Positions 4,659-37,697 of a stretch of DNA of 64,000 nucleotides are shown piece by piece; position 1 is the first letter of the stretch, and every line of letters begins with the position of its first letter. The translations under genes and the position numbers were made by a program. The stretch is from Pyrinomonadaceae bacterium (lineage in GTDB: Bacteria; Acidobacteriota; Blastocatellia; Pyrinomonadales; Pyrinomonadaceae): contig JAYUCO010000025.1 in assembly GCA_043740295.1 (NCBI GenBank), positions 2,741 through 66,740 on the forward strand, given 5' to 3'. Below the pieces are notes generated by a model. That model had not been told where the DNA came from. It did not search any database and was given only the letters and a program-made list of their open reading frames with translations.

Positions 4659-5465
4659 ATGGCAAGCACAAAAAAAATAGAAAGAATTCTCAATGTGATT
4701 CCGTCACAAGGTACGGAACAGGATTGGAGCATGGATAATGCTCTTGCTTCGGGGATGATGGCGGCTCCGGCGGCTTTGCCTGCAAGCAAGGATTTGCGGG
4801 AGGCCTGGTGGAAGGTCGGCGACCAGGGATCGACCGGGTCGTGTGTCGGATGGGGAGCGGCTGAGGGCGTCTTGCGCTGGCATTTTGTCAAGGCAAACAG
4901 AATTCCAAAAGATGCAAATTTATCGCCGAGCTTATCTCCGAGATTCGTTTGGATGGCAGCCAAGGAAACCGATGAATTTTTGTCCCGCCCGACAACTTTT
5001 ATCGAATCCGACGGCACGAGCCTGAAATCGGCTTTGGACATCGCCCGAAAATTCGGCGTGGTTAGCGATAAGATTCTGCCTTTTGGTTCGGGAACGCTTT
5101 ATCAGGGTGATGTAAATACGTTTTACGCCATTGCATCGCAACTCAAAATCTCCGCCTATATCAATTTGTTCAAGAACTTTATCCAATGGCGGACATGGCT
5201 GGCAACAACCGGACCTATTCTCGCGGCGTTGAATGTTGATAAGACCTGGAGCGACGCGGCTCTGACCGGCGGCAACCTGGATGTGTTTCAGCCCAGTACG
5301 GTACGCGGCGGACACTGCATTGCCATCGTCGGCTACAAGGCTGACGGACGGTTTATTGTTCGCAATAGTTGGGGAACGACCTGGGGTGACAAAGGGTTTG
5401 GATATGCGACCGATGCCTATATCCAGGACGCTTTTTTCGACGAAGCATATGGAGTCAACCTATAA
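4659..5465 (+). CDS. papain-like (C1 family) cysteine peptidase with no recognisable signal peptide
   Basis: The catalytic triad motifs are present: QGSTGSCVGWG (Cys), GGHCIAIVGY (His) and VRNSWGTTWGDKGFGY (Asn). An AAGGAG SD precedes the start. Confidence 0.8.
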   Translation: MASTKKIERILNVIPSQGTEQDWSMDNALASGMMAAPAALPASKDLREAWWKVGDQGSTGSCVGWGAAEGVLRWHFVKANRIPKDANLSPSLSPRFVWMAAKETDEFLSRPTTFIESDGTSLKSALDIARKFGVVSDKILPFGSGTLYQGDVNTFYAIASQLKISAYINLFKNFIQWRTWLATTGPILAALNVDKTWSDAALTGGNLDVFQPSTVRGGHCIAIVGYKADGRFIVRNSWGTTWGDKGFGYATDAYIQDAFFDEAYGVNL

Positions 5466-5592
5466 ACATCAACCCGTTATTTGATTTCCAGTAACGGCAG
5501 AACCATGAATATGGCGGCGAGCATAAGAACCGCTCATCAGCCAATGGAGAGCACGAGATAAAGGTCGGGTAGGACTTTAGGAGAAAAATAAC

Positions 5593-6267
5593 ATGAGCGA
5601 CACATCAAATACGCCGTTGGGTTACACCGCAGCCGAAGCAAATCCAATTGTAAACCTTAATTCTACCGGCACTGATAAAGTAGGTGTATTTACATCTGCT
5701 CAGTCGCTTGTAACATTTCCCGGAGCGACCTTTGCCGTTTCGTTGATCTGGTCGGTACTTGAAAAAGTATACCCTCCGTTCGGCACAAAAAATCTGCTGG
5801 TGCCGTTGGTATTATCTGTCGCAATCGGCTCACTAATCTATCTGAGTAGCGTCCAACAAGGCGGTGGTGTTAGAGGACACATTATGGGCGGTTTTGTTGC
5901 TCTGGTCAATTCTTTCATCATTGCCGCAGCAGTTCTCGGCGTGAGTGGGACGCAAGGTAAACCTGTGGCAAATGACCCGGTCATCGCGAATACGGTCCAA
6001 AACCCGGTGCCAGCTAGTAAAGATGACTTGCTCAAACAGGCGGAAGATGCGGCCGCGAGCGAAAATTACGCGCTTGCGATCGAGAAATACAATAGTTTGA
6101 TCAAACTGGAATCGGAAAATTCCTGGCACTATAAAGATCGTGGAAATGCTTTCCAACATTTAAGGACTCCTAATTTTGAGGCAGCCGTGGCTGATTATAA
6201 TACGGCTCTCGGGTTAATTCCGAGGTTTGACGATGCAAGCCTAAATCAGATGATGCCAAAACACTAG
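5593..6267 (+). CDS. membrane protein (about 3 TM helices) with C-terminal TPR repeats; apparently interrupted by a frameshift
   Basis: A TAGGAG SD precedes the start. Hydrophobic helices occupy residues ~45-120. TPR-like helices follow (YALAIEKYNSLIKL, AAVADYNTALGL). The ORF ends abruptly inside a TPR unit. Confidence 0.6.
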   Translation: MSDTSNTPLGYTAAEANPIVNLNSTGTDKVGVFTSAQSLVTFPGATFAVSLIWSVLEKVYPPFGTKNLLVPLVLSVAIGSLIYLSSVQQGGGVRGHIMGGFVALVNSFIIAAAVLGVSGTQGKPVANDPVIANTVQNPVPASKDDLLKQAEDAAASENYALAIEKYNSLIKLESENSWHYKDRGNAFQHLRTPNFEAAVADYNTALGLIPRFDDASLNQMMPKH

Positions 6268-18510: not shown

Positions 18511-19707
18511 ATGTTCCGCCGTATTTATCTTGATAACAGTGCAACAACGCAGCCTGACGCCGAAGTATTCGAGGCTATGCTTCCCTGGCTGACCGAGAAA
18601 TTTGGCAATGCGTCGAGCATTCATTTTTTCGGTCAGGAAGCACGCGGTGCAGTTGATAAAGCCCGGCATCAGGTAGCCGAGTTAATAAACGCGAGGCCAA
18701 ACGAGATAGTCTTTACATCCGGCGGCACCGAATCAAACAATCTGGCTGTCCGCGGACTTTTGGAAAGTCTTAACGCCGGCTCCCAGTCGACAAAACGCCA
18801 CATCATTACCTCCGCCATCGAACATTCAGCCGTCCTCAATGTCTGTGAAGACCTTGAAAAACAAGGTTACGATGTTACTTATCTGCCTGTTTACGGCGAC
18901 GGCATCGTCCGTCTCGAAGACCTAAAAAAATCTATCCGCGACGATACGGTTTTAATCTCGATCATGACTGCGAACAACGAGATCGGTACGATCCAGCCGG
19001 TCGAGGAGATTGGCAAACTCGTCCGCGAAAGACGCGAAAGCGGCAATAAACTATGGTTTCACACCGATGCGGTGCAGGCGGTGGGCAAAGTCCCGGTAGA
19101 TGTCGAGGCCCTGGGCTGCGATATGCTATCAATTTCGGCCCACAAAATATACGCCCCAAAAGGCATCGGGGCTTTATACGTTCGTCGCGGTGTGCGTCTT
19201 CATCCGCAAAATATCGGCGGGCATCAGGAACGCGAACGGCGCGGTGGCACCGAACCTGTGCCGCACATCGTCGCATTTGGAAAGGCCTGCGAACTGGCTA
19301 AAACGCGATTGGAGGACGGCATAAGTGAATTGGCGGCAATACGGGATGCTTTCGAACATGGCGTCTGCGAAAGGATCTCCGATCTCGTCATGAACGGCGA
19401 TCATGCCAAACGCCTTCCAAATATCTCAAATATTTCCTTTCGTTTCATTGAAGGCGAAGGCTTGCTCATCAATCTCGACATGCAGGGCATTGCCGTTTCG
19501 ACCGGTTCCGCCTGCTCGTCCGGTTCGCTCGAACCATCGCCTGTTATTCGCGCACTCGGCAGAAACGACGAACTTGCACGCGGAGCCATCCGGTTTAGCT
19601 TTGGAAAAAATAATACGATGGAAGACGTGGACCACGTCCTTGAGATATTGCCAAAATCGGTGGAAAACCTAAGAAAGCTTTCTCCGCAATATGTTAAAGC
19701 GGCTTAG
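18511..19707 (+). CDS. cysteine desulfurase (NifS/IscS class V aminotransferase)
   Basis: The motifs YLDNSATT, SAHKIYAPKGIGALY (PLP lysine) and STGSACSSG (active-site Cys) are present. Confidence 0.85.
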   Translation: MFRRIYLDNSATTQPDAEVFEAMLPWLTEKFGNASSIHFFGQEARGAVDKARHQVAELINARPNEIVFTSGGTESNNLAVRGLLESLNAGSQSTKRHIITSAIEHSAVLNVCEDLEKQGYDVTYLPVYGDGIVRLEDLKKSIRDDTVLISIMTANNEIGTIQPVEEIGKLVRERRESGNKLWFHTDAVQAVGKVPVDVEALGCDMLSISAHKIYAPKGIGALYVRRGVRLHPQNIGGHQERERRGGTEPVPHIVAFGKACELAKTRLEDGISELAAIRDAFEHGVCERISDLVMNGDHAKRLPNISNISFRFIEGEGLLINLDMQGIAVSTGSACSSGSLEPSPVIRALGRNDELARGAIRFSFGKNNTMEDVDHVLEILPKSVENLRKLSPQYVKAA

Positions 19708-19715
19708 CTCACAGA

Positions 19716-20003
19716 TCAGCTAATGTCGGCGGGAATCTTATAAGTGAGATTTTTTGCGGCTTGTGTGAGCAGCCAATTATTTTGGTTTTTCTTGACCGCT
19801 TCTTGAAAATAGGCTATTGATTCGATCGCTTCGGACTTTTCCTTACATTTAACAAAACCGGCTGTTATAGCATTAAATACGATATTTATCGGAATCCCTT
19901 CTTTTTCCCATTCGGCGATCAATGTATAATCCGTCGGATTCAAGATACCTATTGATGGTACTCGGGCAAGAAAAAAATCCGCGATTTCTGTAACGTAACT
20001 CAT
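19716..20003 (-). CDS. hypothetical 95-aa protein (weak DnaD-domain-like pattern)
   Basis: LNPTDYTLIAEWEKEGIPINIVFNAI...YFQEAVKKNQNNW resembles the DnaD/DnaB_2 repeat pattern. This is a low-confidence assignment from memory. Confidence 0.35.
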   Translation of the reverse strand: MSYVTEIADFFLARVPSIGILNPTDYTLIAEWEKEGIPINIVFNAITAGFVKCKEKSEAIESIAYFQEAVKKNQNNWLLTQAAKNLTYKIPADIS

Positions 20004-20015
20004 ACACTTGCTTCC

Positions 20016-20053
20016 AAAAAAAAAGCAGCCTGCCGGTCTCCCGGTAAGGCTGC
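20016..20053 (-). terminator. rho-independent terminator of the GVITAG-repeat gene
   Basis: On the minus strand a GCAGCCT...AGGCTGC hairpin is followed by T9. Confidence 0.8.
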
Positions 20054-20090
20054 TCCACGTAAATCTACCCCCCCAAGCTTGATACCTGGA

Positions 20091-20423
20091 TTAGCCCGCA
20101 GTTATAACACCACAATTTACCGAAGGAGATGTGCCAGCAAATCCGGCAGTGATGACTCCAGCAAATCCTGCAGTAATGACTCCTGCAAATCCTGCTGTGA
20201 TAACTCCTGCAAATCCCGCAGTGATAACTCCAGCAAAGCCCGCAGTAATTACGCCGTCTCTAGATGTTTCAGATGTACAGGACTCTGATTTGACCGTTGT
20301 TCTTGCTACAGTTGCATCCGAAGTGCGTCCCGCTGTAATTACACCTGCGTTAGCAAAAGTTGTCCCTAATGTGACGATGGTTACCAATGTTATCCAACCA
20401 AAAATAATTTTTAAGTTTCTCAT
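20091..20423 (-). CDS. small secreted repeat protein with seven GVITAG motifs, five of them in tandem GVITAGFA units
   Basis: A signal peptide is present (MRNLKIIFGWITLVTIVTLGTTFANA|G). An AGGA SD precedes the start and the gene has its own terminator. All variation between repeat units is synonymous in this frame. Confidence 0.75.
   Translation of the reverse strand: MRNLKIIFGWITLVTIVTLGTTFANAGVITAGRTSDATVARTTVKSESCTSETSRDGVITAGFAGVITAGFAGVITAGFAGVITAGFAGVITAGFAGTSPSVNCGVITAG
20134..20253 (-). repeat. five tandem 24-bp coding repeats
   Basis: Units start at 20134, 20158, 20182, 20206 and 20230. Each encodes VITAGFAG on the minus strand. Confidence 0.9.
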
Positions 20424-20841
20424 GTTTGTTCCTTTATGTTTATTAAAATTAAAGCTTCCTGCTTTGCGTTGCTCTTTTTATTACAAGCACCGTGCCATGA
20501 GATATTCTGACGTTGCATGATCTTTTAATATCAATGAGATCAACAGTTACGGGTTCTCTTCAATGTTAGGATACACGTATCTCAGGATACGGATTAAGTG
20601 TATACATCATTATCATTTAATAGTAAGTCCTTTATTTTCAATATTTAATAATTTGGATAGTAAATATGCATAAAAATGCTTACCTGCTATACAAATCTCG
20701 TTGAAAGTTAGTTTTTTAGTAGATTTTTTTCTTTTAATGGTGTTAAACTTTGTTGTCTGGCGTTATTGCCTCCTTATATTTTTTTTGCAGGACGTATGTT
20801 CTCTTGAAAATCCCCCCTAAAACTCGCTTCCTAAACTAATT

Positions 20842-23091
20842 ATGAACAGAAAAAAACTGTCTGATTACTACAAGGCAATAATCATTGCCCTGGGAGTTAT
20901 ATGTCTGGGGTGGGCTCTATTTGCATTACCGGGACCGGCCTATAGTTTGGGCTATCTCTTTCTTTTGATATTTTCTGTTCTCGTTTCCCCACGTCTCAGC
21001 CTTATTCTTCCCCGTTCAAGGGTCACGGTAAGTTTTTCCGACGCTGTTATCTTCCTATGTTTCTTAATATATGGCGGCGAGGCGGCGATAGTTGCCGCTT
21101 CGCTCGAAATGCTTGCTAACTGTTATTACATTAAGTGGAAAGAGCTGATGGTTTTTGGCAGATATATGATTCTGACCAATACTTTTATTGCTTCGATTTC
21201 GGTCACCGCCACTTATTTTGTATGGCAGATATTTTCATTTCTGACCGGCATTGAAATAATGTCATCGAACACGCGACAGCTGATCGCAAGCCTTGGAGTA
21301 TTGGCAGTAACGCATTTTTTGGTTTCCACATATTTAGGGGCCATGGTTCAGGTTTTCAAGGAAAACAGCCTGAAATTATGGGACACTTGGAAAAAACACT
21401 ACTTTTCCATCTCAATGACGCACATAGTTGGGGCCGGCTTGGCCGGGATGATCTACAAGCTGATAAATTATGGTGACATATTTACCGCTGCGGTCGCATT
21501 TCTTGCTCTTGGGATCATATATTTGAATTATCGCCAGTCGATCGGAGAGATAAATGACGCGGTTGAAAACTTTGAAAAGGCTGAACGCGACAAATCCGCT
21601 GCCGAACGCGAACGCCGAAAGGAAGCGGAGCGCCACTCGGAACAGCTTTCTATTTCTCTTAAAAAGGAAGAACTTGCCAACGATGCCCTTCGGCAAAGCG
21701 AAAAAGACCTGCAATATGCCGCCTTGTACGATTCACTCACCGGCCTCGCCAATCGCAAGCATTTTGGCGATATTCTGCGTAATTTGATCGATGAATACAA
21801 GGAAAATCCCTCGATCAATTTTCAGGTCCTATTTCTCGACATCCGCAGCTTTAAGAACATCAATGACAGCTTGGGCCACACTATTGGCGACAAGGTTTTG
21901 GCGATAGCCGCAAAACGTTTTGTCCGGATGCTTAATCCAGGCGACACCGTCGCCCGGATCGGAGGAGATGAATTTGCGATCATCCTTCGCAATCTGACAA
22001 CGGTCGGCAAGGCTCAAAAGGTCGCCCGCCGCATATATCAAAGCATTACCCAGCCTTTCGCCCTCAGCGGAAACAACATTTTGATCGACGTCAATATCGG
22101 CATTGCACCGTGCGACGCCGAGTACGACACGCCAGAAGAAATTTTACGCGATGCGGACATAGCGATGCATTACGCCAAGGAAACAAATGACGGTCTGGCG
22201 GTTTTCACGCGAGAATTGCGCACGCGTTTTCTCGAACGGGTGCGGTTCGAAATTGATCTCCGCAACGCTATCGACCGCGAAGAACTTTCGATGCATTACC
22301 AGCCGATCATATCGCTCGGCGACGGCCAACTTGTCGGTTTCGAGGCCCTTCTCAGGTGGCACCACAGCGAATTCGGCCTTATTCCGCCAAACAAATTTAT
22401 TCCAATTGCCGAACAAGCCGGATTGATCCAGCCGATCACCGTTTGGATATTGCGCGAGACGTGCAAACAGTTGGCGGAGTGGCAAAGAATATCCGCCGAA
22501 TACGTAAATTTGATGATGAGCGTGAACATTTCAGGCAAGCATCTTTCAAATAACGATTTGATAGAGGATGTAAGTTACGCTCTCGAAAAATCGAAACTCC
22601 GCCCCGAAACACTTAAGCTTGAGATCACCGAAAGCTCCGCCATGGAAAATGCGGAACATACGATAAATATGCTGCATAAGCTAAAGCAGCTCGGCGTGCA
22701 GTTGAGCATTGACGATTTCGGCACCGGATATTCGTCGCTCAGCTACCTGCACCGGCTGCCGTTCGATACATTAAAGATCGACCGTTCATTCGTATCGCGG
22801 GTCGGCGAACACGGCGAGAATTCCGAGATCCTGCAAACGATCATTTCGCTCGCCAAGAACTTGAAAATGCGCGTCATCGCCGAAGGCATCGAGACTGAGC
22901 CGCAGCTTGCCGTTCTGCAAAATCTCGGATGCGATTACGGCCAGGGATATTTGATGGCAAAGCCCAAAAACAGGAACGAAACGGAAACACTGCTTTACCG
23001 CCGCCCGAATTGGCTGCCTTTTGGGACCGGAACGGAATTCGAATCTTCAAAAGAAAGTGACCGAGTGGAAGAAGTGTTACCGGTATTTTAA
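20842..23091 (+). CDS. membrane-bound GGDEF-EAL protein (diguanylate cyclase / phosphodiesterase)
   Basis: The N-terminus has 6-7 TM helices, followed by a coiled coil. The motifs RIGGDEFAI, EALLRW, KLEITES and DDFGTGYSS are present. Confidence 0.9.
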   Translation: MNRKKLSDYYKAIIIALGVICLGWALFALPGPAYSLGYLFLLIFSVLVSPRLSLILPRSRVTVSFSDAVIFLCFLIYGGEAAIVAASLEMLANCYYIKWKELMVFGRYMILTNTFIASISVTATYFVWQIFSFLTGIEIMSSNTRQLIASLGVLAVTHFLVSTYLGAMVQVFKENSLKLWDTWKKHYFSISMTHIVGAGLAGMIYKLINYGDIFTAAVAFLALGIIYLNYRQSIGEINDAVENFEKAERDKSAAERERRKEAERHSEQLSISLKKEELANDALRQSEKDLQYAALYDSLTGLANRKHFGDILRNLIDEYKENPSINFQVLFLDIRSFKNINDSLGHTIGDKVLAIAAKRFVRMLNPGDTVARIGGDEFAIILRNLTTVGKAQKVARRIYQSITQPFALSGNNILIDVNIGIAPCDAEYDTPEEILRDADIAMHYAKETNDGLAVFTRELRTRFLERVRFEIDLRNAIDREELSMHYQPIISLGDGQLVGFEALLRWHHSEFGLIPPNKFIPIAEQAGLIQPITVWILRETCKQLAEWQRISAEYVNLMMSVNISGKHLSNNDLIEDVSYALEKSKLRPETLKLEITESSAMENAEHTINMLHKLKQLGVQLSIDDFGTGYSSLSYLHRLPFDTLKIDRSFVSRVGEHGENSEILQTIISLAKNLKMRVIAEGIETEPQLAVLQNLGCDYGQGYLMAKPKNRNETETLLYRRPNWLPFGTGTEFESSKESDRVEEVLPVF

Positions 23092-36094: not shown

Positions 36095-37489
36095 ATGTCA
36101 AACATTTTAATTGTTGATGACGAGCAAAGTTACAGACAGCTTCTGAGCCTTGTATTTGATGGCGAAGGGCATAGTATCCGCACGGCTTCAAACGGGCGGG
36201 AGGCACTCGATCTCCTTCAGACCGAACCGGCGGATGTTATTATCTCCGATGTAAAAATGCCCGATATGGACGGCATTGAAATGCTTCGTGCAGTGCGTGA
36301 AAAACTTCCCGATCTCGGGGTGATCCTAATGACCGCATTTGCCTCGGTTGAAACAGCCCGCGAAGCTTTCAAACTCGGCGCCGACGATTTCATCCAAAAA
36401 CCATTCGATGTCGAGGAGCTGAAATTAATTGTCAGAAAAACGCTGGACCGACAGGTCTTGATAGATGAAAACCGCGCATTCAAACGGGCCCAGCGTGACC
36501 GCGGAAGCATAAAAAATATTGTCGGGAATTCGGGTAAAATGCACGCCATATTCCAGATGATAGAAACGGTCGCCGAGGTGCAATCGACAGTTTTAGTAAC
36601 CGGCGAAAGCGGAACAGGTAAAGAACTCGTTGCCCGCGCCATCCATGATCTAAGCCCGCGTGCCGAAAAACCTTTTATTTCAATAAACTGCGGAGCATTT
36701 ACCGAAACTCTGCTCGAATCCGAACTCTTCGGCTACATAAAAGGATCGTTCACCGGTGCCAATGCCAACCGCAAAGGGCTTTTCGAGGCCGCCCATCGCG
36801 GAACTATATTTCTTGACGAGATCGGCGAAATGTCGCCCGCAATGCAGGTCAAGCTTCTACGGGTCCTACAGGAGAGAAAGGTTCGCCCTGTCGGTGCCCA
36901 CGACGAGCTGCCGATAGACGCCCGCGTTATCGCAGCTACCAATCGCGACCTAAAGCAAATGTCCATTGAAGGATCATTCCGCGAGGACCTTTTTTACCGT
37001 ATTTCGGTCATACCGATACATCTTCCGCCGCTCCGTGACCGCCGCGAGGATATTTCCGAACTTGTCCGTCACTTCATCGTAAAATTTTGTATCCAGTCAG
37101 GCCGTGAGGTCGGCATTTCGCCGAAAGCAATGTATTTGCTGGAAAATTATATGTGGGGCGGCAACGTCCGCGAGCTCGAACACACAATTGAACGTGCCGT
37201 TGCCCTCGAACGCGAAGATCAGATACAGCCCGAACGCCTGCCCGACCATATCACCAATTACAATCCCGAACGCATCAAAGCCGAATTCGAATTGCCTGAT
37301 GACGGTTTAAATCTCACCGCCCACCTCGAGAACCTCGAAAAGACCTATGTCGTCGAAGCGCTTCGGATGACCGCCGGAAACCAAACAAAAGCCGCCGATC
37401 TATTACAAATGCAGGTCCGCTCTCTCCGTCATCTCCTGGATAAACACAGCATTAGAAATTTGTCAGCCCAAATGCGCAGTGGGGAGTGA
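36095..37489 (+). CDS. pilR: sigma-54-dependent response regulator (PilR-like)
   Basis: A REC domain (ILIVDDEQ...[10 protein letters not shown]) is followed by GESGTGKE and GSFTGA (the GAFTGA position) and a C-terminal HTH. I prefer the ATG at 36095. Confidence 0.8.
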
Positions 37490-37681: not shown

Positions 37682-37697
37682 TGGCACACGTCTTGTA
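37682..37697 (+). promoter_or_regulatory. sigma-54 (-24/-12) promoter of pilA
   Basis: TGGCACACGTCTTGTA matches the consensus TGGCACG-N4-TTGCW with correct spacing, apart from GT instead of GC at -12. It lies 69 nt upstream of the pilA ATG, next to a sigma-54 activator gene. Confidence 0.6.

Follow-up and report, generated by a model that had tools for sequence, protein, structure and literature searches.

Chaplins of Streptomyces are Sec-exported, amyloid-forming coat proteins of less than 10 kDa in the mature form that are hydrophobic, rich in Gly, Val and Ile, carry two conserved Cys and are believed to assemble with one another extracellularly. Sec-exported pheromone precursors of Firmicutes, of the Phr/Rap, SHP/Rgg and PapR/PlcR types, are also small, and end in a short hydrophobic unit that varies between lineages. 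Multi-core RiPP precursors such as the cyanobactin precursor PatE hold several identical or near-identical cores with hypervariable residues between conserved flanks. Among structural repeats, the RTX beta-roll (PF00353) and the hexapeptide beta-helix (PF00132) are built from short Gly-containing units made of a turn and an aliphatic strand of three to four residues; known beta-solenoid and amyloid repeats are usually degenerate. YfiR, which acts with YfiN, is a small periplasmic regulator of a membrane diguanylate cyclase. Many bacteriocins are small proteins with two Cys.

We describe a gene from a Pyrinomonadaceae bacterium that can be set against all of these systems. It was found in a stretch of 64,000 nucleotides, hereafter the window, that corresponds to positions 2,741 to 66,740 of contig JAYUCO010000025.1. 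The coding sequence occupies 20091-20423 on the minus strand, with the stop codon TAA at 20093-20091. Its open reading frame and translation gave the product that a sequence-only reading of this DNA had described: a precursor of 110 aa (P0001) with five GVITAGFA units, seven GVITAG motifs and two Cys. All coordinates of the gene that follow are on the minus strand. The precursor begins with a signal peptide (aa 1-26; 20346-20423) composed of MRNLK, a hydrophobic core and FANA|G, followed by a GVITAG motif at the predicted start of the mature protein (aa 27-32; 20328-20345), Cys49 (20277-20279), five perfect tandem GVITAGFA units (aa 57-96; 20136-20255), Cys104 (20112-20114) and, directly after this Cys, a last GVITAG (aa 105-110; 20094-20111) that forms the exact C-terminus. 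The seven hexapeptide copies are identical, and Cys49 and Cys104 are the only Cys in the protein. The ANA|G cleavage site was taken from the -3/-1 rule and read by eye; AlphaFold2 modelled aa 2-23 as a helix with pLDDT >90. The mature protein had been said to begin and end with GVITAG, which is correct for the end, right before the stop codon, whereas for the start it depends on cleavage by signal peptidase at ANA|G. The predicted mature protein has 84 aa, a mass of 7.9 kDa and a GRAVY of 0.71, and its central block of 41 residues is uncharged with a GRAVY of 1.65. At the DNA level, TRF reported a 24-nt array at 20134-20246 with 4.7 copies, 88% matches and no indels. The same DNA with the same repeat number was found in contigs from two metagenome runs of one study, which are possibly the source of the assembly and not independent of it; among the runs listed as containing the locus there was no RNA run.

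The gene has the signals of its own that had been proposed. A Shine-Dalgarno-like AAGGA lies 6 nt from the ATG (20434-20430), and an intrinsic terminator, in which an interrupted GC-rich hairpin is followed by T9 (20024-20016), occupies 20056-20016. The whole 83-nt stretch folds at -30.3 kcal/mol (z = -2.6); a simple terminator scan missed the hairpin due to its internal loop. The GC content of 25-28% that had been given for the adjacent intergenic region fits only the core at 20574-20723 (24-25%), since the whole region (20424-20841) has 31.6%. Rfam returned no match within 19500-21200.

The five 24-nt units vary at seven of 24 positions, all of them third codon positions at which the changes are synonymous on the minus strand and cause M/I and N/K changes in the overlapping plus-strand frame, exactly as had been read from the letters. 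With 21 of the 72 single changes possible in one unit being synonymous, seven out of seven would occur by chance with a probability of ~2e-4. The purifying selection thus postulated extends to the family: in all ten family genes examined, identical hexapeptide copies differ at synonymous sites only, by a mean of 1.3-4.0 of 18 nt. In two family genes the N-terminal copy has Ser encoded by AGC and the central copies have Ser encoded by TCN, which points to parallel change in separate copies and not to homogenisation of the DNA. The peptide repeat, and not the DNA, is therefore the target of conservation, and selection keeps the copies identical.

These data make it exceedingly improbable that the locus is non-coding repeat DNA or that the plus-strand ORF at 20131-20520 is the real gene. 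This 129-aa frame is indeed open across the repeats, and a similar mirror ORF exists at a related locus (L024), but the unit variation is wholly synonymous in the minus frame alone, which contradicts conservation of the plus-strand frame. Furthermore, the signal peptide, both Cys and the termini recur in the minus frame of 556 profile matches, with homologs aligning over the full length, and the promoter, the Shine-Dalgarno element and the terminator all serve the minus strand. The gene is real, is encoded on the minus strand and carries an export signal.

Homologs, which the sequence-only reading had suggested searching for, were found in large numbers. The profile search gave 556 cluster representatives, and 209 representatives matched profile A1, seeded by P0001, at E up to 1e-10. 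P0001 itself combines a full-length profile match with two Cys and a terminal motif, the features that define the family. Among the genomes searched, members are confined to a single family of Acidobacteriota, with 0 of 373 genomes from the rest of the phylum containing any, and within the genus of the window the gene is present in single copy in 16 of 16 other genomes. A narrower alignment, A2, was used to search for related loci and produced one true locus, the aforementioned L024 from an Acidobacteria MAG; a match to a Treponema membrane protein (L025) was rejected as a chance hit.

Architecture was counted in 150 members having the motif. Exactly two Cys follow the first motif in 144 of them, a Cys immediately precedes the last motif in 97, and the motif is the exact C-terminal end in 130. 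Immediately before the first motif, 106 members have [AVSG]-x-[AGS], and the residue corresponding to G27 is nearly invariant across the family. A spacing of 8 residues between motifs is dominant (319 intervals; next commonest spacing, 41). All 803 motifs start with G; the next three residues are aliphatic, the fifth is A, S, T or G in 620 of the 803, the sixth is G or D, and the seventh and eighth are mostly F, L or R followed by T. This residue pattern fits a strand followed by a turn. Whether the N-terminal motif is of the G-ending or the D-ending type is associated with the type of the C-terminal motif (table 47/16/21/51; odds ratio 7.1 by a Fisher test that takes no account of relatedness), and the association holds with the central type fixed. 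Such covariation fits terminal strands that may form a pair or may both bind a single partner. Between species the motif is far from constant: orthologs at the same locus within one genus have TAG, IAG, VAG, ILG, INN, IDN, IHN or IGD as the variable triplet, and between loci the whole repeat protein is 23-56% identical compared with 50-80% for the flanking genes.

The earlier statement that no described family has this motif stands. Pfam and NCBIfam gave no match for P0001 and no credible match among 150 relatives; when P0001 was scanned against Pfam at E up to 10, only Colicin_M was listed, at 1.1. Nothing was found by PDB sequence search at E up to 10, and a literature search on the motif strings found no paper about such a protein in the portions of text that it returned. 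The chaplins (PF03777) are similar in being Sec-exported, as predicted for the repeat protein, as well as small, hydrophobic, rich in Gly, Val and Ile and equipped with two conserved Cys. They belong to a different phylum, however, and contain no tandem identical units; their profile matched neither P0001 at E up to 10 nor any of 150 members at E up to 0.01. The beta-solenoids share the short Gly-containing units with a turn and a 3-4 residue aliphatic strand, and D-type units of the family recall the Asp of RTX. In contrast to both solenoid families, the repeat protein has a period of 8 rather than 9 or 6, contains five to seven units only, has no solenoid in its AlphaFold2 model and has identical units where known solenoid repeats are degenerate. 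The Pfam profiles PF00353 (HemolysinCabind, GGxGxDxUx nonapeptide) and PF00132 (left-handed helix, [LIV]-[GAED]-x-x-[STAV]-x) matched neither P0001 nor any of 150 members; PF00132 does match a GVLIGD protease tail of the same genome, considered below.

Upstream of the gene, a sigma-54-type promoter, TGGCACGGTGCTTGT, was identified by pattern matches and conservation at 20483-20497 (minus strand), 74 nt from the ATG. The pattern has two matches in the window against 0.09 expected. A TGGCAC-N5-TTG element is found ~60-85 nt upstream of the repeat gene in 20 of 21 loci, made up of 17 of the 18 relatives' loci examined, mostly at 63-83 nt, and three further loci. The genome encodes rpoN (199 bits), which, along with the GG of the -24 element, the -12 element, their fixed spacing and the conserved distance, supports the assignment. 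Genome-wide, a loose promoter pattern occurs 80 times against ~52 expected by a rough estimate that assumes uniform base composition; this count is weak by itself, and it is the conservation among orthologous loci that carries the argument. By that comparison the predicted sigma-54 promoter is conserved, and a sigma-70 promoter scan found 3 against 3.9 expected, not above shuffles.

The long AT-rich upstream region also contains candidate activator-binding sites at 20569-20606 (minus strand), namely a palindrome, TGTATACA (20606-20599), and GTATC-N4-GATAC (20590-20577). A TATACA/TATCCA word recurs 104-109 nt upstream of the sigma-54 promoter in 9 of 17 loci, a positional recurrence that is suggestive; enrichment of words upstream of the promoter was not above shuffles, so these sites are candidates only. 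The genome has 14 candidate sigma-54 activators. In this arrangement the repeat gene resembles sigma-54 surface genes, such as a type IV pilin gene with its PilR-type activator: its TGGCAC-N5-TTGTA is of the same type as the element of the pilin gene in the window (37682), where the identical -12 variant (TTGTA) occurs. The repeat gene differs in that its -12 element reads TTGT or TTGA, compared with the textbook TTGC. Control of the cell exterior has been linked to sigma-54 (PMC3162934). A literature search found no paper linking Pyrinomonadaceae with sigma-54.

The gene neighbourhood is conserved across the loci compared by sequence. Divergent from the repeat gene, at 20842-23091 on the plus strand, lies the gene for a 749-aa protein with a polytopic N-terminal membrane region of ~290 aa and, by Pfam, GGDEF and EAL domains; it has no large periplasmic domain and is a possible functional partner. 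Such a GGDEF-EAL gene adjoins the repeat gene in 16 of 21 loci (14 divergent and 2 in another orientation), though 12 of the 21 come from one genus and are not independent; the adjacency was also seen in two further genomes (G053 and G017). Of five further genomes with the repeat gene, four have a clear ortholog of the enzyme, as against none of five genomes that lack the repeat gene; relatedness among these ten was uncontrolled. The conserved block consists of an S9 peptidase, the GGDEF-EAL gene, the repeat gene and a cysteine desulfurase. The last of these lies downstream in 15 of 21 loci, and a link to it was set aside in favour of gene order inherited by descent, since either neighbour can be retained in the absence of the other (L027, L029). 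The S9 prolyl oligopeptidase is two genes away from repeats that contain no proline. Beyond the cysteine desulfurase, relatives have a radical SAM gene with a glycosyltransferase and a dehydrogenase, which is missing from the window.

One reading of this neighbourhood, which we regard as improbable, is that the protein acts intact in the periplasm, where in disulfide-bonded form it would bind the membrane region of the GGDEF-EAL enzyme and tune c-di-GMP turnover, much as YfiR does with its cyclase. The adjacency, the co-occurrence of the enzyme ortholog with the repeat gene, and a Sec signal that comes without an outer-membrane export signal all point in this direction. On the other hand, the entire S9 peptidase-to-cysteine desulfurase block is conserved, so the adjacency may itself be inherited order, and it is absent for second copies and in several genera (L027, L030, L031, L032). 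The co-occurrence is drawn from just those ten genomes, and an intact partner leaves the repeats, their identical copies and the rapid motif change unexplained.

Modules of the same kind occur in long arrays fused to secreted S8 proteases, as GVLIGD x8 and GLLISD x10 in this genome and as GIVxTGAD x16-22 in relatives. The GVLIGD tail scores 27.4 bits against the 27-bit cut-off of Pfam Hexapep, a beta-helix repeat family. These enzyme-fused arrays argue for a structural or docking unit, as judged from their sequences. GVITAG is unlike GVLIGD and GLLISD, and specific docking to this genome's protease tails is therefore unsupported.

In our best reading, to which we assign a probability of about 0.35, the protein is a beta-strand module of the envelope or matrix that stacks on itself and is stapled by a disulfide. 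An enhancer-binding activator would turn on transcription from the conserved sigma-54 promoter; the precursor would be exported by Sec and cleaved by signal peptidase at ANA|G, and a Cys49-Cys104 disulfide would close a 54-residue loop holding the five GVITAGFA units. The seven G-hydrophobic-hydrophobic-x-x-G segments would form short beta-strands with G-F-A/T-G turns between them, which would stack inside one molecule and probably across molecules as well, the N-terminal strand pairing with the C-terminal one. The envelope or extracellular matrix would thereby gain a component that associates with itself and is cross-beta or beta-solenoid-like, and the divergently encoded GGDEF-EAL enzyme may act in one physiological module with it (c-di-GMP, aggregation or biofilm). 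We infer the disulfide, the strand stacking, the self-association, the matrix role and the c-di-GMP link. In favour of this module are the copies kept identical by selection, the scaffold of two Cys and terminal motifs, the terminal covariation, the arrays on S8 proteases, the sigma-54 promoter and the GGDEF-EAL adjacency.

Several observations weigh against it. AlphaFold2 gave no secondary structure for the mature part (pLDDT 33-56) with either 14 or 150 aligned sequences, and confidence in the ESM Atlas model is low too (pLDDT 0.46). The beta-solenoid neighbours of the Atlas model all fall below the acceptance bar, including the first, an RTX cluster at TM 0.48. Perfect identity of the copies better suits units that act independently, as released peptides would. 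By itself a Sec signal takes a protein just to the periplasm of a diderm cell, and in the loci compared none of the conserved neighbours is a nucleator, usher or outer-membrane secretion gene. The motif also differs from the protease-tail motifs of this genome. Of the three functions that had been offered from the sequence, fibre formation by self-association and a multi-copy peptide precursor are still the leading two; a surface-layer component was set aside, as nothing specific supports it and the mature protein has only 84 aa and no AlphaFold2 fold.

The main rival, which we consider possible if somewhat doubtful, is that the exported protein is cut by extracellular or periplasmic proteases into hydrophobic signal peptides of the GVITAG(FA) type. 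The terminal copies would need one cut each, the first lying at the predicted signal-peptidase site and the last ending the protein in 130 of 150 members; the triplet would give lineage specificity, and the polytopic region of the GGDEF-EAL neighbour would be the obvious candidate for a membrane receptor. Copies that stay identical as protein while their DNA diverges are typical of precursors of multiple identical products. The sharp triplet differences between same-locus orthologs in one genus, the low identity of the repeat protein relative to its flanking genes, the absence of an AlphaFold2 fold, the probably tight sigma-54 control, and a conserved enzyme that lacks a large periplasmic domain and follows the repeat gene in its distribution can all be counted on the same side. 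Nevertheless, two strictly conserved Cys and conserved spacers would be needless in a mere precursor, independent peptides do not explain why the terminal types covary irrespective of the central type, and S8 proteases carry the same module in long arrays. No basic or other obvious processing site is conserved, and no dedicated protease, transporter or modifying enzyme lies nearby. To our knowledge, no peptide signalling of this kind has been described in Acidobacteria.

Like the Firmicutes pheromone precursors, the repeat protein is small, predicted to be exported, has a hydrophobic unit at its exact C-terminus and shows strong lineage-specific variation of the unit; unlike them, it is multi-copy, has two conserved Cys, comes from a diderm host and has a membrane GGDEF-EAL neighbour, and no gene for a cytoplasmic TPR receptor of the RRNPP type (Rap, NprR, PlcR, PrgX or Rgg) was seen in 21 loci. 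It shares with cyanobactin precursors the several (near-)identical cores, the conserved flanks and the hypervariable core residues, but has a Sec signal peptide in place of a cytoplasmic leader. No protease, cyclase, transporter or other modifying enzyme is conserved beside the gene in the 21 loci; the neighbouring protease or modifying enzyme that had been proposed as a check was thus looked for, and none specific to the repeat gene was found.

It is hardly likely that the product is a membrane-active peptide, either bacteriocin-like or pore-forming, whose 41-residue block would insert as a glycine-zipper helix with a small residue at every fourth position (G1-x-x-x-A5-x-x-x-G1). The uncharged, strongly hydrophobic block, the small residues at motif positions 1 and 5, the rapid diversification of the family and the two Cys in a small protein would suit such a peptide. 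In many members, however, the block includes charged spacers (R-D, R-T or K-D) or a D as the sixth motif residue. Genes for immunity or export are not among the conserved neighbours, and a single-copy gene that is universal in its genus does not resemble accessory bacteriocin loci.

Both leading readings could accommodate a further idea that we put forward with considerable reserve and think rather unlikely: the variable triplet, which is the same in all copies of a protein and changes between species, may be a specificity code. The protein would be the ligand side of a lineage-specific recognition system in a diderm phylum, acting either through hydrophobic peptides set free from it or as a strand that polymerises homotypically, switched on by sigma-54 and read via the polytopic GGDEF-EAL protein into c-di-GMP.

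Beyond the sequence-only reading, this analysis adds the conserved sigma-54 promoter, the GGDEF-EAL pairing, the family-wide architecture including two conserved Cys, the identity of copies within a protein as opposed to triplet change between species, and the covariation of terminal types. By sequence, the family is undescribed and fast-evolving and, in the genomes searched, limited to one Acidobacteriota family. It has hundreds of unannotated members with features that are easy to test, and the module on the secreted S8 proteases of the same bacteria is likewise unnamed. The evolutionary signature of the family is unusual in that copies are held identical by selection while the motif turns over fast between species and the terminal motifs change together. 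The sigma-54 promoter and the neighbouring c-di-GMP enzyme offer direct routes to the condition under which the protein is produced. Acidobacteria rank with the most abundant bacteria in soil, and their ways of building a surface and of communicating are poorly known. If the protein self-assembles, bacterial fibres would have a new minimal building block; if it is processed to peptides, the phylum would have a first peptide signal. Should the triplet prove to be a specificity code, Acidobacteria would have a form of self-recognition, based on peptides or strands, that is coupled to c-di-GMP; we know of no precedent for this.

The repeat gene lies on the minus strand at 20091-20423 and encodes a 110-aa precursor, P0001 (MRNLK...FANA/GVITAG...CGVITAG, the slash marking predicted signal peptide cleavage), with five perfect GVITAGFA units at aa 57-96, seven GVITAG motifs in total, and two cysteines, Cys49 and Cys104. 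Tandem Repeats Finder places a 24-nt-period array at 20134-20246 (4.7 copies, 88% matches, no indels). The five units vary at 7 of 24 positions, all of them third codon positions and synonymous in the minus frame, and the same differences produce M/I and N/K changes in the overlapping plus-strand frame, as the sequence-only reading had claimed. Since only 21 of the 72 possible single changes in one unit are synonymous, seven out of seven would arise by chance with a probability of about 2e-4. Non-coding DNA, or a plus-strand ORF as the real gene, is effectively excluded by unit variation that is synonymous only in the minus frame; the gene is real and the initial observation is confirmed. Its own signals were likewise found as described: a Shine-Dalgarno-like AAGGA 6 nt 5' of the ATG, and an interrupted, GC-rich hairpin with a run of nine T behind it (20056-20016, minus strand), which a simple terminator scan did not pick up. 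The 25-28% GC reported for the upstream intergenic region comes near the value of its core (24-25%) and does not hold for the region as a whole (31.6%). The gene is single-copy in its genome, its stretch is identical in two metagenome runs of one study that may be the assembly's source, and Rfam gave no match in the region. Between the terminator and the downstream cysteine desulfurase gene, a 95-aa ORF (19716-20003, minus strand) is without any family match; it has a paralog on contig C61 of the same genome and a homolog (44% identity) that directly follows the repeat gene at a locus of another genus (L029:3446-3661).

A word-based search with P0001 returned five relatives at 48-65% identity. 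A family profile of 14 members, one from the unpublished genome G017, was scored against 1.84 billion cluster representatives and matched 556 proteins at E<=1e-3 and 209 at E<=1e-10. The best 150 of the 556 are all 77-189 aa, most aligned along their whole length, and the hexapeptide motif is present in 150 of the 151 proteins formed by these and P0001. Among those 150 motif-bearing proteins, the sequence ends exactly on a motif in 130, exactly two Cys follow the first motif in 144, Cys immediately precedes the last motif in 97, and a small-x-small site immediately precedes the first in 106. The 150 proteins with the motif mostly hold five copies (78 members; six in 40, seven in 13, four in 13); the window's seven fall at the high end of the range. 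Spacing is most commonly 8 residues (319 intervals, versus 41 for the runner-up). The unit follows the consensus G - I/V/L - I/L/V - V/I/L/M/T - A/S/T/N/G - G or D, continued in central copies mostly by F/L/R and then T. The supposition that no described family carries this motif stood up: P0001 has no credible match in Pfam or NCBIfam and none among PDB sequences at E<=10, and the best 150 members gave scattered single Pfam or NCBIfam matches only (E 2e-4 to 1e-2). As judged by titles and the opening text of abstracts, a full-text literature search with motif strings yielded no paper on such a protein.

The family appears to be confined to one bacterial family. In a phylum sample of 401 genomes (E<=1e-5), matches occurred in 15 of its 27 genomes and in the window's own, and in 0 of 373 genomes from 96 other families; these figures describe samples, in which a gene not found is not thereby absent. 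Within the bacterial family, 70 of 301 genomes match, spread over 19 of 60 genera and including every other genome of the window's genus (16 of 16). Some relatives carry two or three copies, and a related locus occurs in a public MAG titled 'Acidobacteria bacterium'. Three tandem small genes (L032 about 4850-5900, G071:C7; L007:1076-2055) encode the family signal peptide and two Cys with degenerate repeats.

In 10 of 10 genes examined, peptide-identical copies differ at synonymous sites (mean 1.3-4.0 of 18 nt). At two loci (L003 and L012), Ser is encoded by AGC in the N-terminal copy and by TCN in the central copies, codons that are not interconverted by one silent step. What keeps the copies identical, or has made them so, therefore operates on the protein; recent homogenisation of the DNA is not the cause. 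Every copy is identical in 39 of 147 members. In many members the two termini share a motif type that differs from the one in the centre. The type of the N-terminal motif (G- or D-ending) goes with that of the C-terminal one (table 47/16/21/51, odds ratio 7.1; 45/11/16/31 when only members with a G-type centre are counted); the test takes no account of relatedness and exaggerates the significance. Same-position orthologs within one genus nonetheless differ strongly in the motif's variable triplet: TAG, IAG, VAG, ILG, INN, IDN, IHN or IGD. Identity between loci is 23-56% for the repeat protein; it is 62-79% for the flanking cysteine desulfurase, 50-80% for the GGDEF-EAL protein and 68-76% for the S9 peptidase. 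Strictly identical copies, a triplet that changes fast from lineage to lineage and exact motif termini are what a multi-copy peptide precursor would display, a possible reading that fits almost as well as the self-stacking structural unit we prefer.

Similar arrays occur on secreted S8 proteases. Two in the window's genome end in GVLIGD x8 (L022:2516-5092; G000:C30:31515-34091) and GLLISD x10 (L023:2521-4494; G000:C48), copies within both tails differing only synonymously. The GVLIGD tail scores high enough to reach the Hexapep cut-off in Pfam, and a sigma-54-type site stands 69 nt 5' of its gene. In relatives, GIVxTGAD x16-22 directly follows the signal peptide of S8 proteases (L009:1393-3180; L018:3-2129 and L014, from the unpublished genome G013), matching in period and pattern the units at the centre of the small-family proteins. 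The protease hexapeptides and the D-ending terminal motifs of the family belong to one type, a likeness partly by design since the search pattern was shaped on the motif. GLLISD and GVLIGD also occur in the small-family members P0010 and P0072; the window's GVITAG differs from the S8 tail motifs of its own genome.

AlphaFold2 predicted a confident helix in the signal peptide only and no secondary structure in the mature part (pLDDT 33-56, with 14 and with 150 aligned sequences); that no fold is predicted also suits a peptide precursor. The ESM Atlas model was of low confidence (pLDDT 0.46), with beta-solenoid proteins (RTX roll, NosD-type helix, bactofilin-like) as nearest neighbours, all under the tool's bar. 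Mature P0001 (7.9 kDa, GRAVY 0.71) includes a 41-residue uncharged block of GRAVY 1.65; that it acts as a membrane-active glycine-zipper peptide seems unlikely. We favour, at a probability of about 35%, a structural, self-stacking unit that would work outside the cytoplasm, because the two Cys are conserved, the repeat fits a strand-plus-turn pattern, the terminal motifs covary and enzymes carry the module in arrays.

The neighbourhood comparison covered 20 genomes with 21 loci, of which 12 belong to the window's genus. A GGDEF-EAL protein of about 750 aa with a polytopic, unannotated N-terminal region (20842-23091, plus strand, in the window) is the divergent upstream neighbour at 14 loci, and its gene adjoins the repeat gene in a different orientation at the two loci that come from another genus. 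Fifteen of 21 loci have a class-V cysteine desulfurase on the downstream side, and 13 of 21 an S9 prolyl oligopeptidase past the GGDEF-EAL gene. L027 and L029 each retain one flanking neighbour without the other, L027 having transposase and phage-like genes upstream instead. As for the neighbouring proteases or modifying enzymes that the sequence-only reading proposed to look for, no protease, transporter or modifying enzyme was common to the remaining loci among the 21. After the cysteine desulfurase, relatives carry radical SAM, MGDG-synthase-like glycosyltransferase and short-chain dehydrogenase genes (L026:11135-14385; L024, L027, L028, L049-L058), and the window has methylmalonyl-CoA mutase and other genes in place of the radical SAM block.

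The GGDEF-EAL membrane region has clear orthologs (42-51% identity, E<=1e-69) in four of five further repeat-positive genomes, again divergently adjacent to the repeat gene in G053 and the unpublished G017, and only paralog-level matches (27-30%) in five repeat-negative genomes. In this small sample, with relatedness uncontrolled, gene order and co-occurrence suggest that the two genes form a pair. The polytopic region itself (20842-21720, plus strand; about 290 aa) has no Pfam domain and is a multi-copy module in the bacterial family; each of the ten genomes searched has 1-5 matches. If peptides are released from a precursor, the polytopic GGDEF-EAL protein is a natural candidate for their receptor; that the repeat protein instead regulates this enzyme as an intact periplasmic protein seems unlikely.

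Upstream regions that are otherwise unalignable share TGGCAC-N5-TTG(T/A), a putative sigma-54-type promoter (20497-20483, minus strand, in the window). Of the first 18 loci examined, 17 have it, mostly 63-83 nt 5' of the start codon, and L059, L052 and L054 bring the count to 20 of 21; pattern search found none upstream of the degenerate tandem paralogs of L032. The window holds two such sites versus 0.09 expected. The second, TGGCAC-N5-TTGTA at 37682-37696 (plus strand), precedes a type IV pilin-like gene (ORF start about 37766; MKNQKGFSLIELL...), with a sigma-54 activator gene just upstream (activator domain at about 36518-37021). Pilin is a classic sigma-54 target. The genome encodes rpoN, and the sigma-54 activator domain has 14 strong matches in it, none of them in a gene conserved next to the repeat gene. 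In 9 of 17 loci the promoter is preceded, at a distance of 104-109 nt, by the word TATACA/TATCCA, with dyads farther upstream; word enrichment was not above shuffles, so these are candidate activator sites only. A loose pattern scan of the window's genome found TGGCAC-N5-TTGC before several small secreted low-complexity G/Y/N/R/D-rich proteins (C15:44482, C30:28637, C30:29423, C30:65745, C75:20775, C82:5491), which suggests that sigma-54 may control a broader set of exported mini-proteins.

Sigma-54 control together with a c-di-GMP neighbour would fit an envelope or matrix role for a structural unit (PMC3162934). The family of the repeat protein is undescribed and restricted to one lineage; its evolutionary signature is unusual, and it offers a clear regulatory handle.
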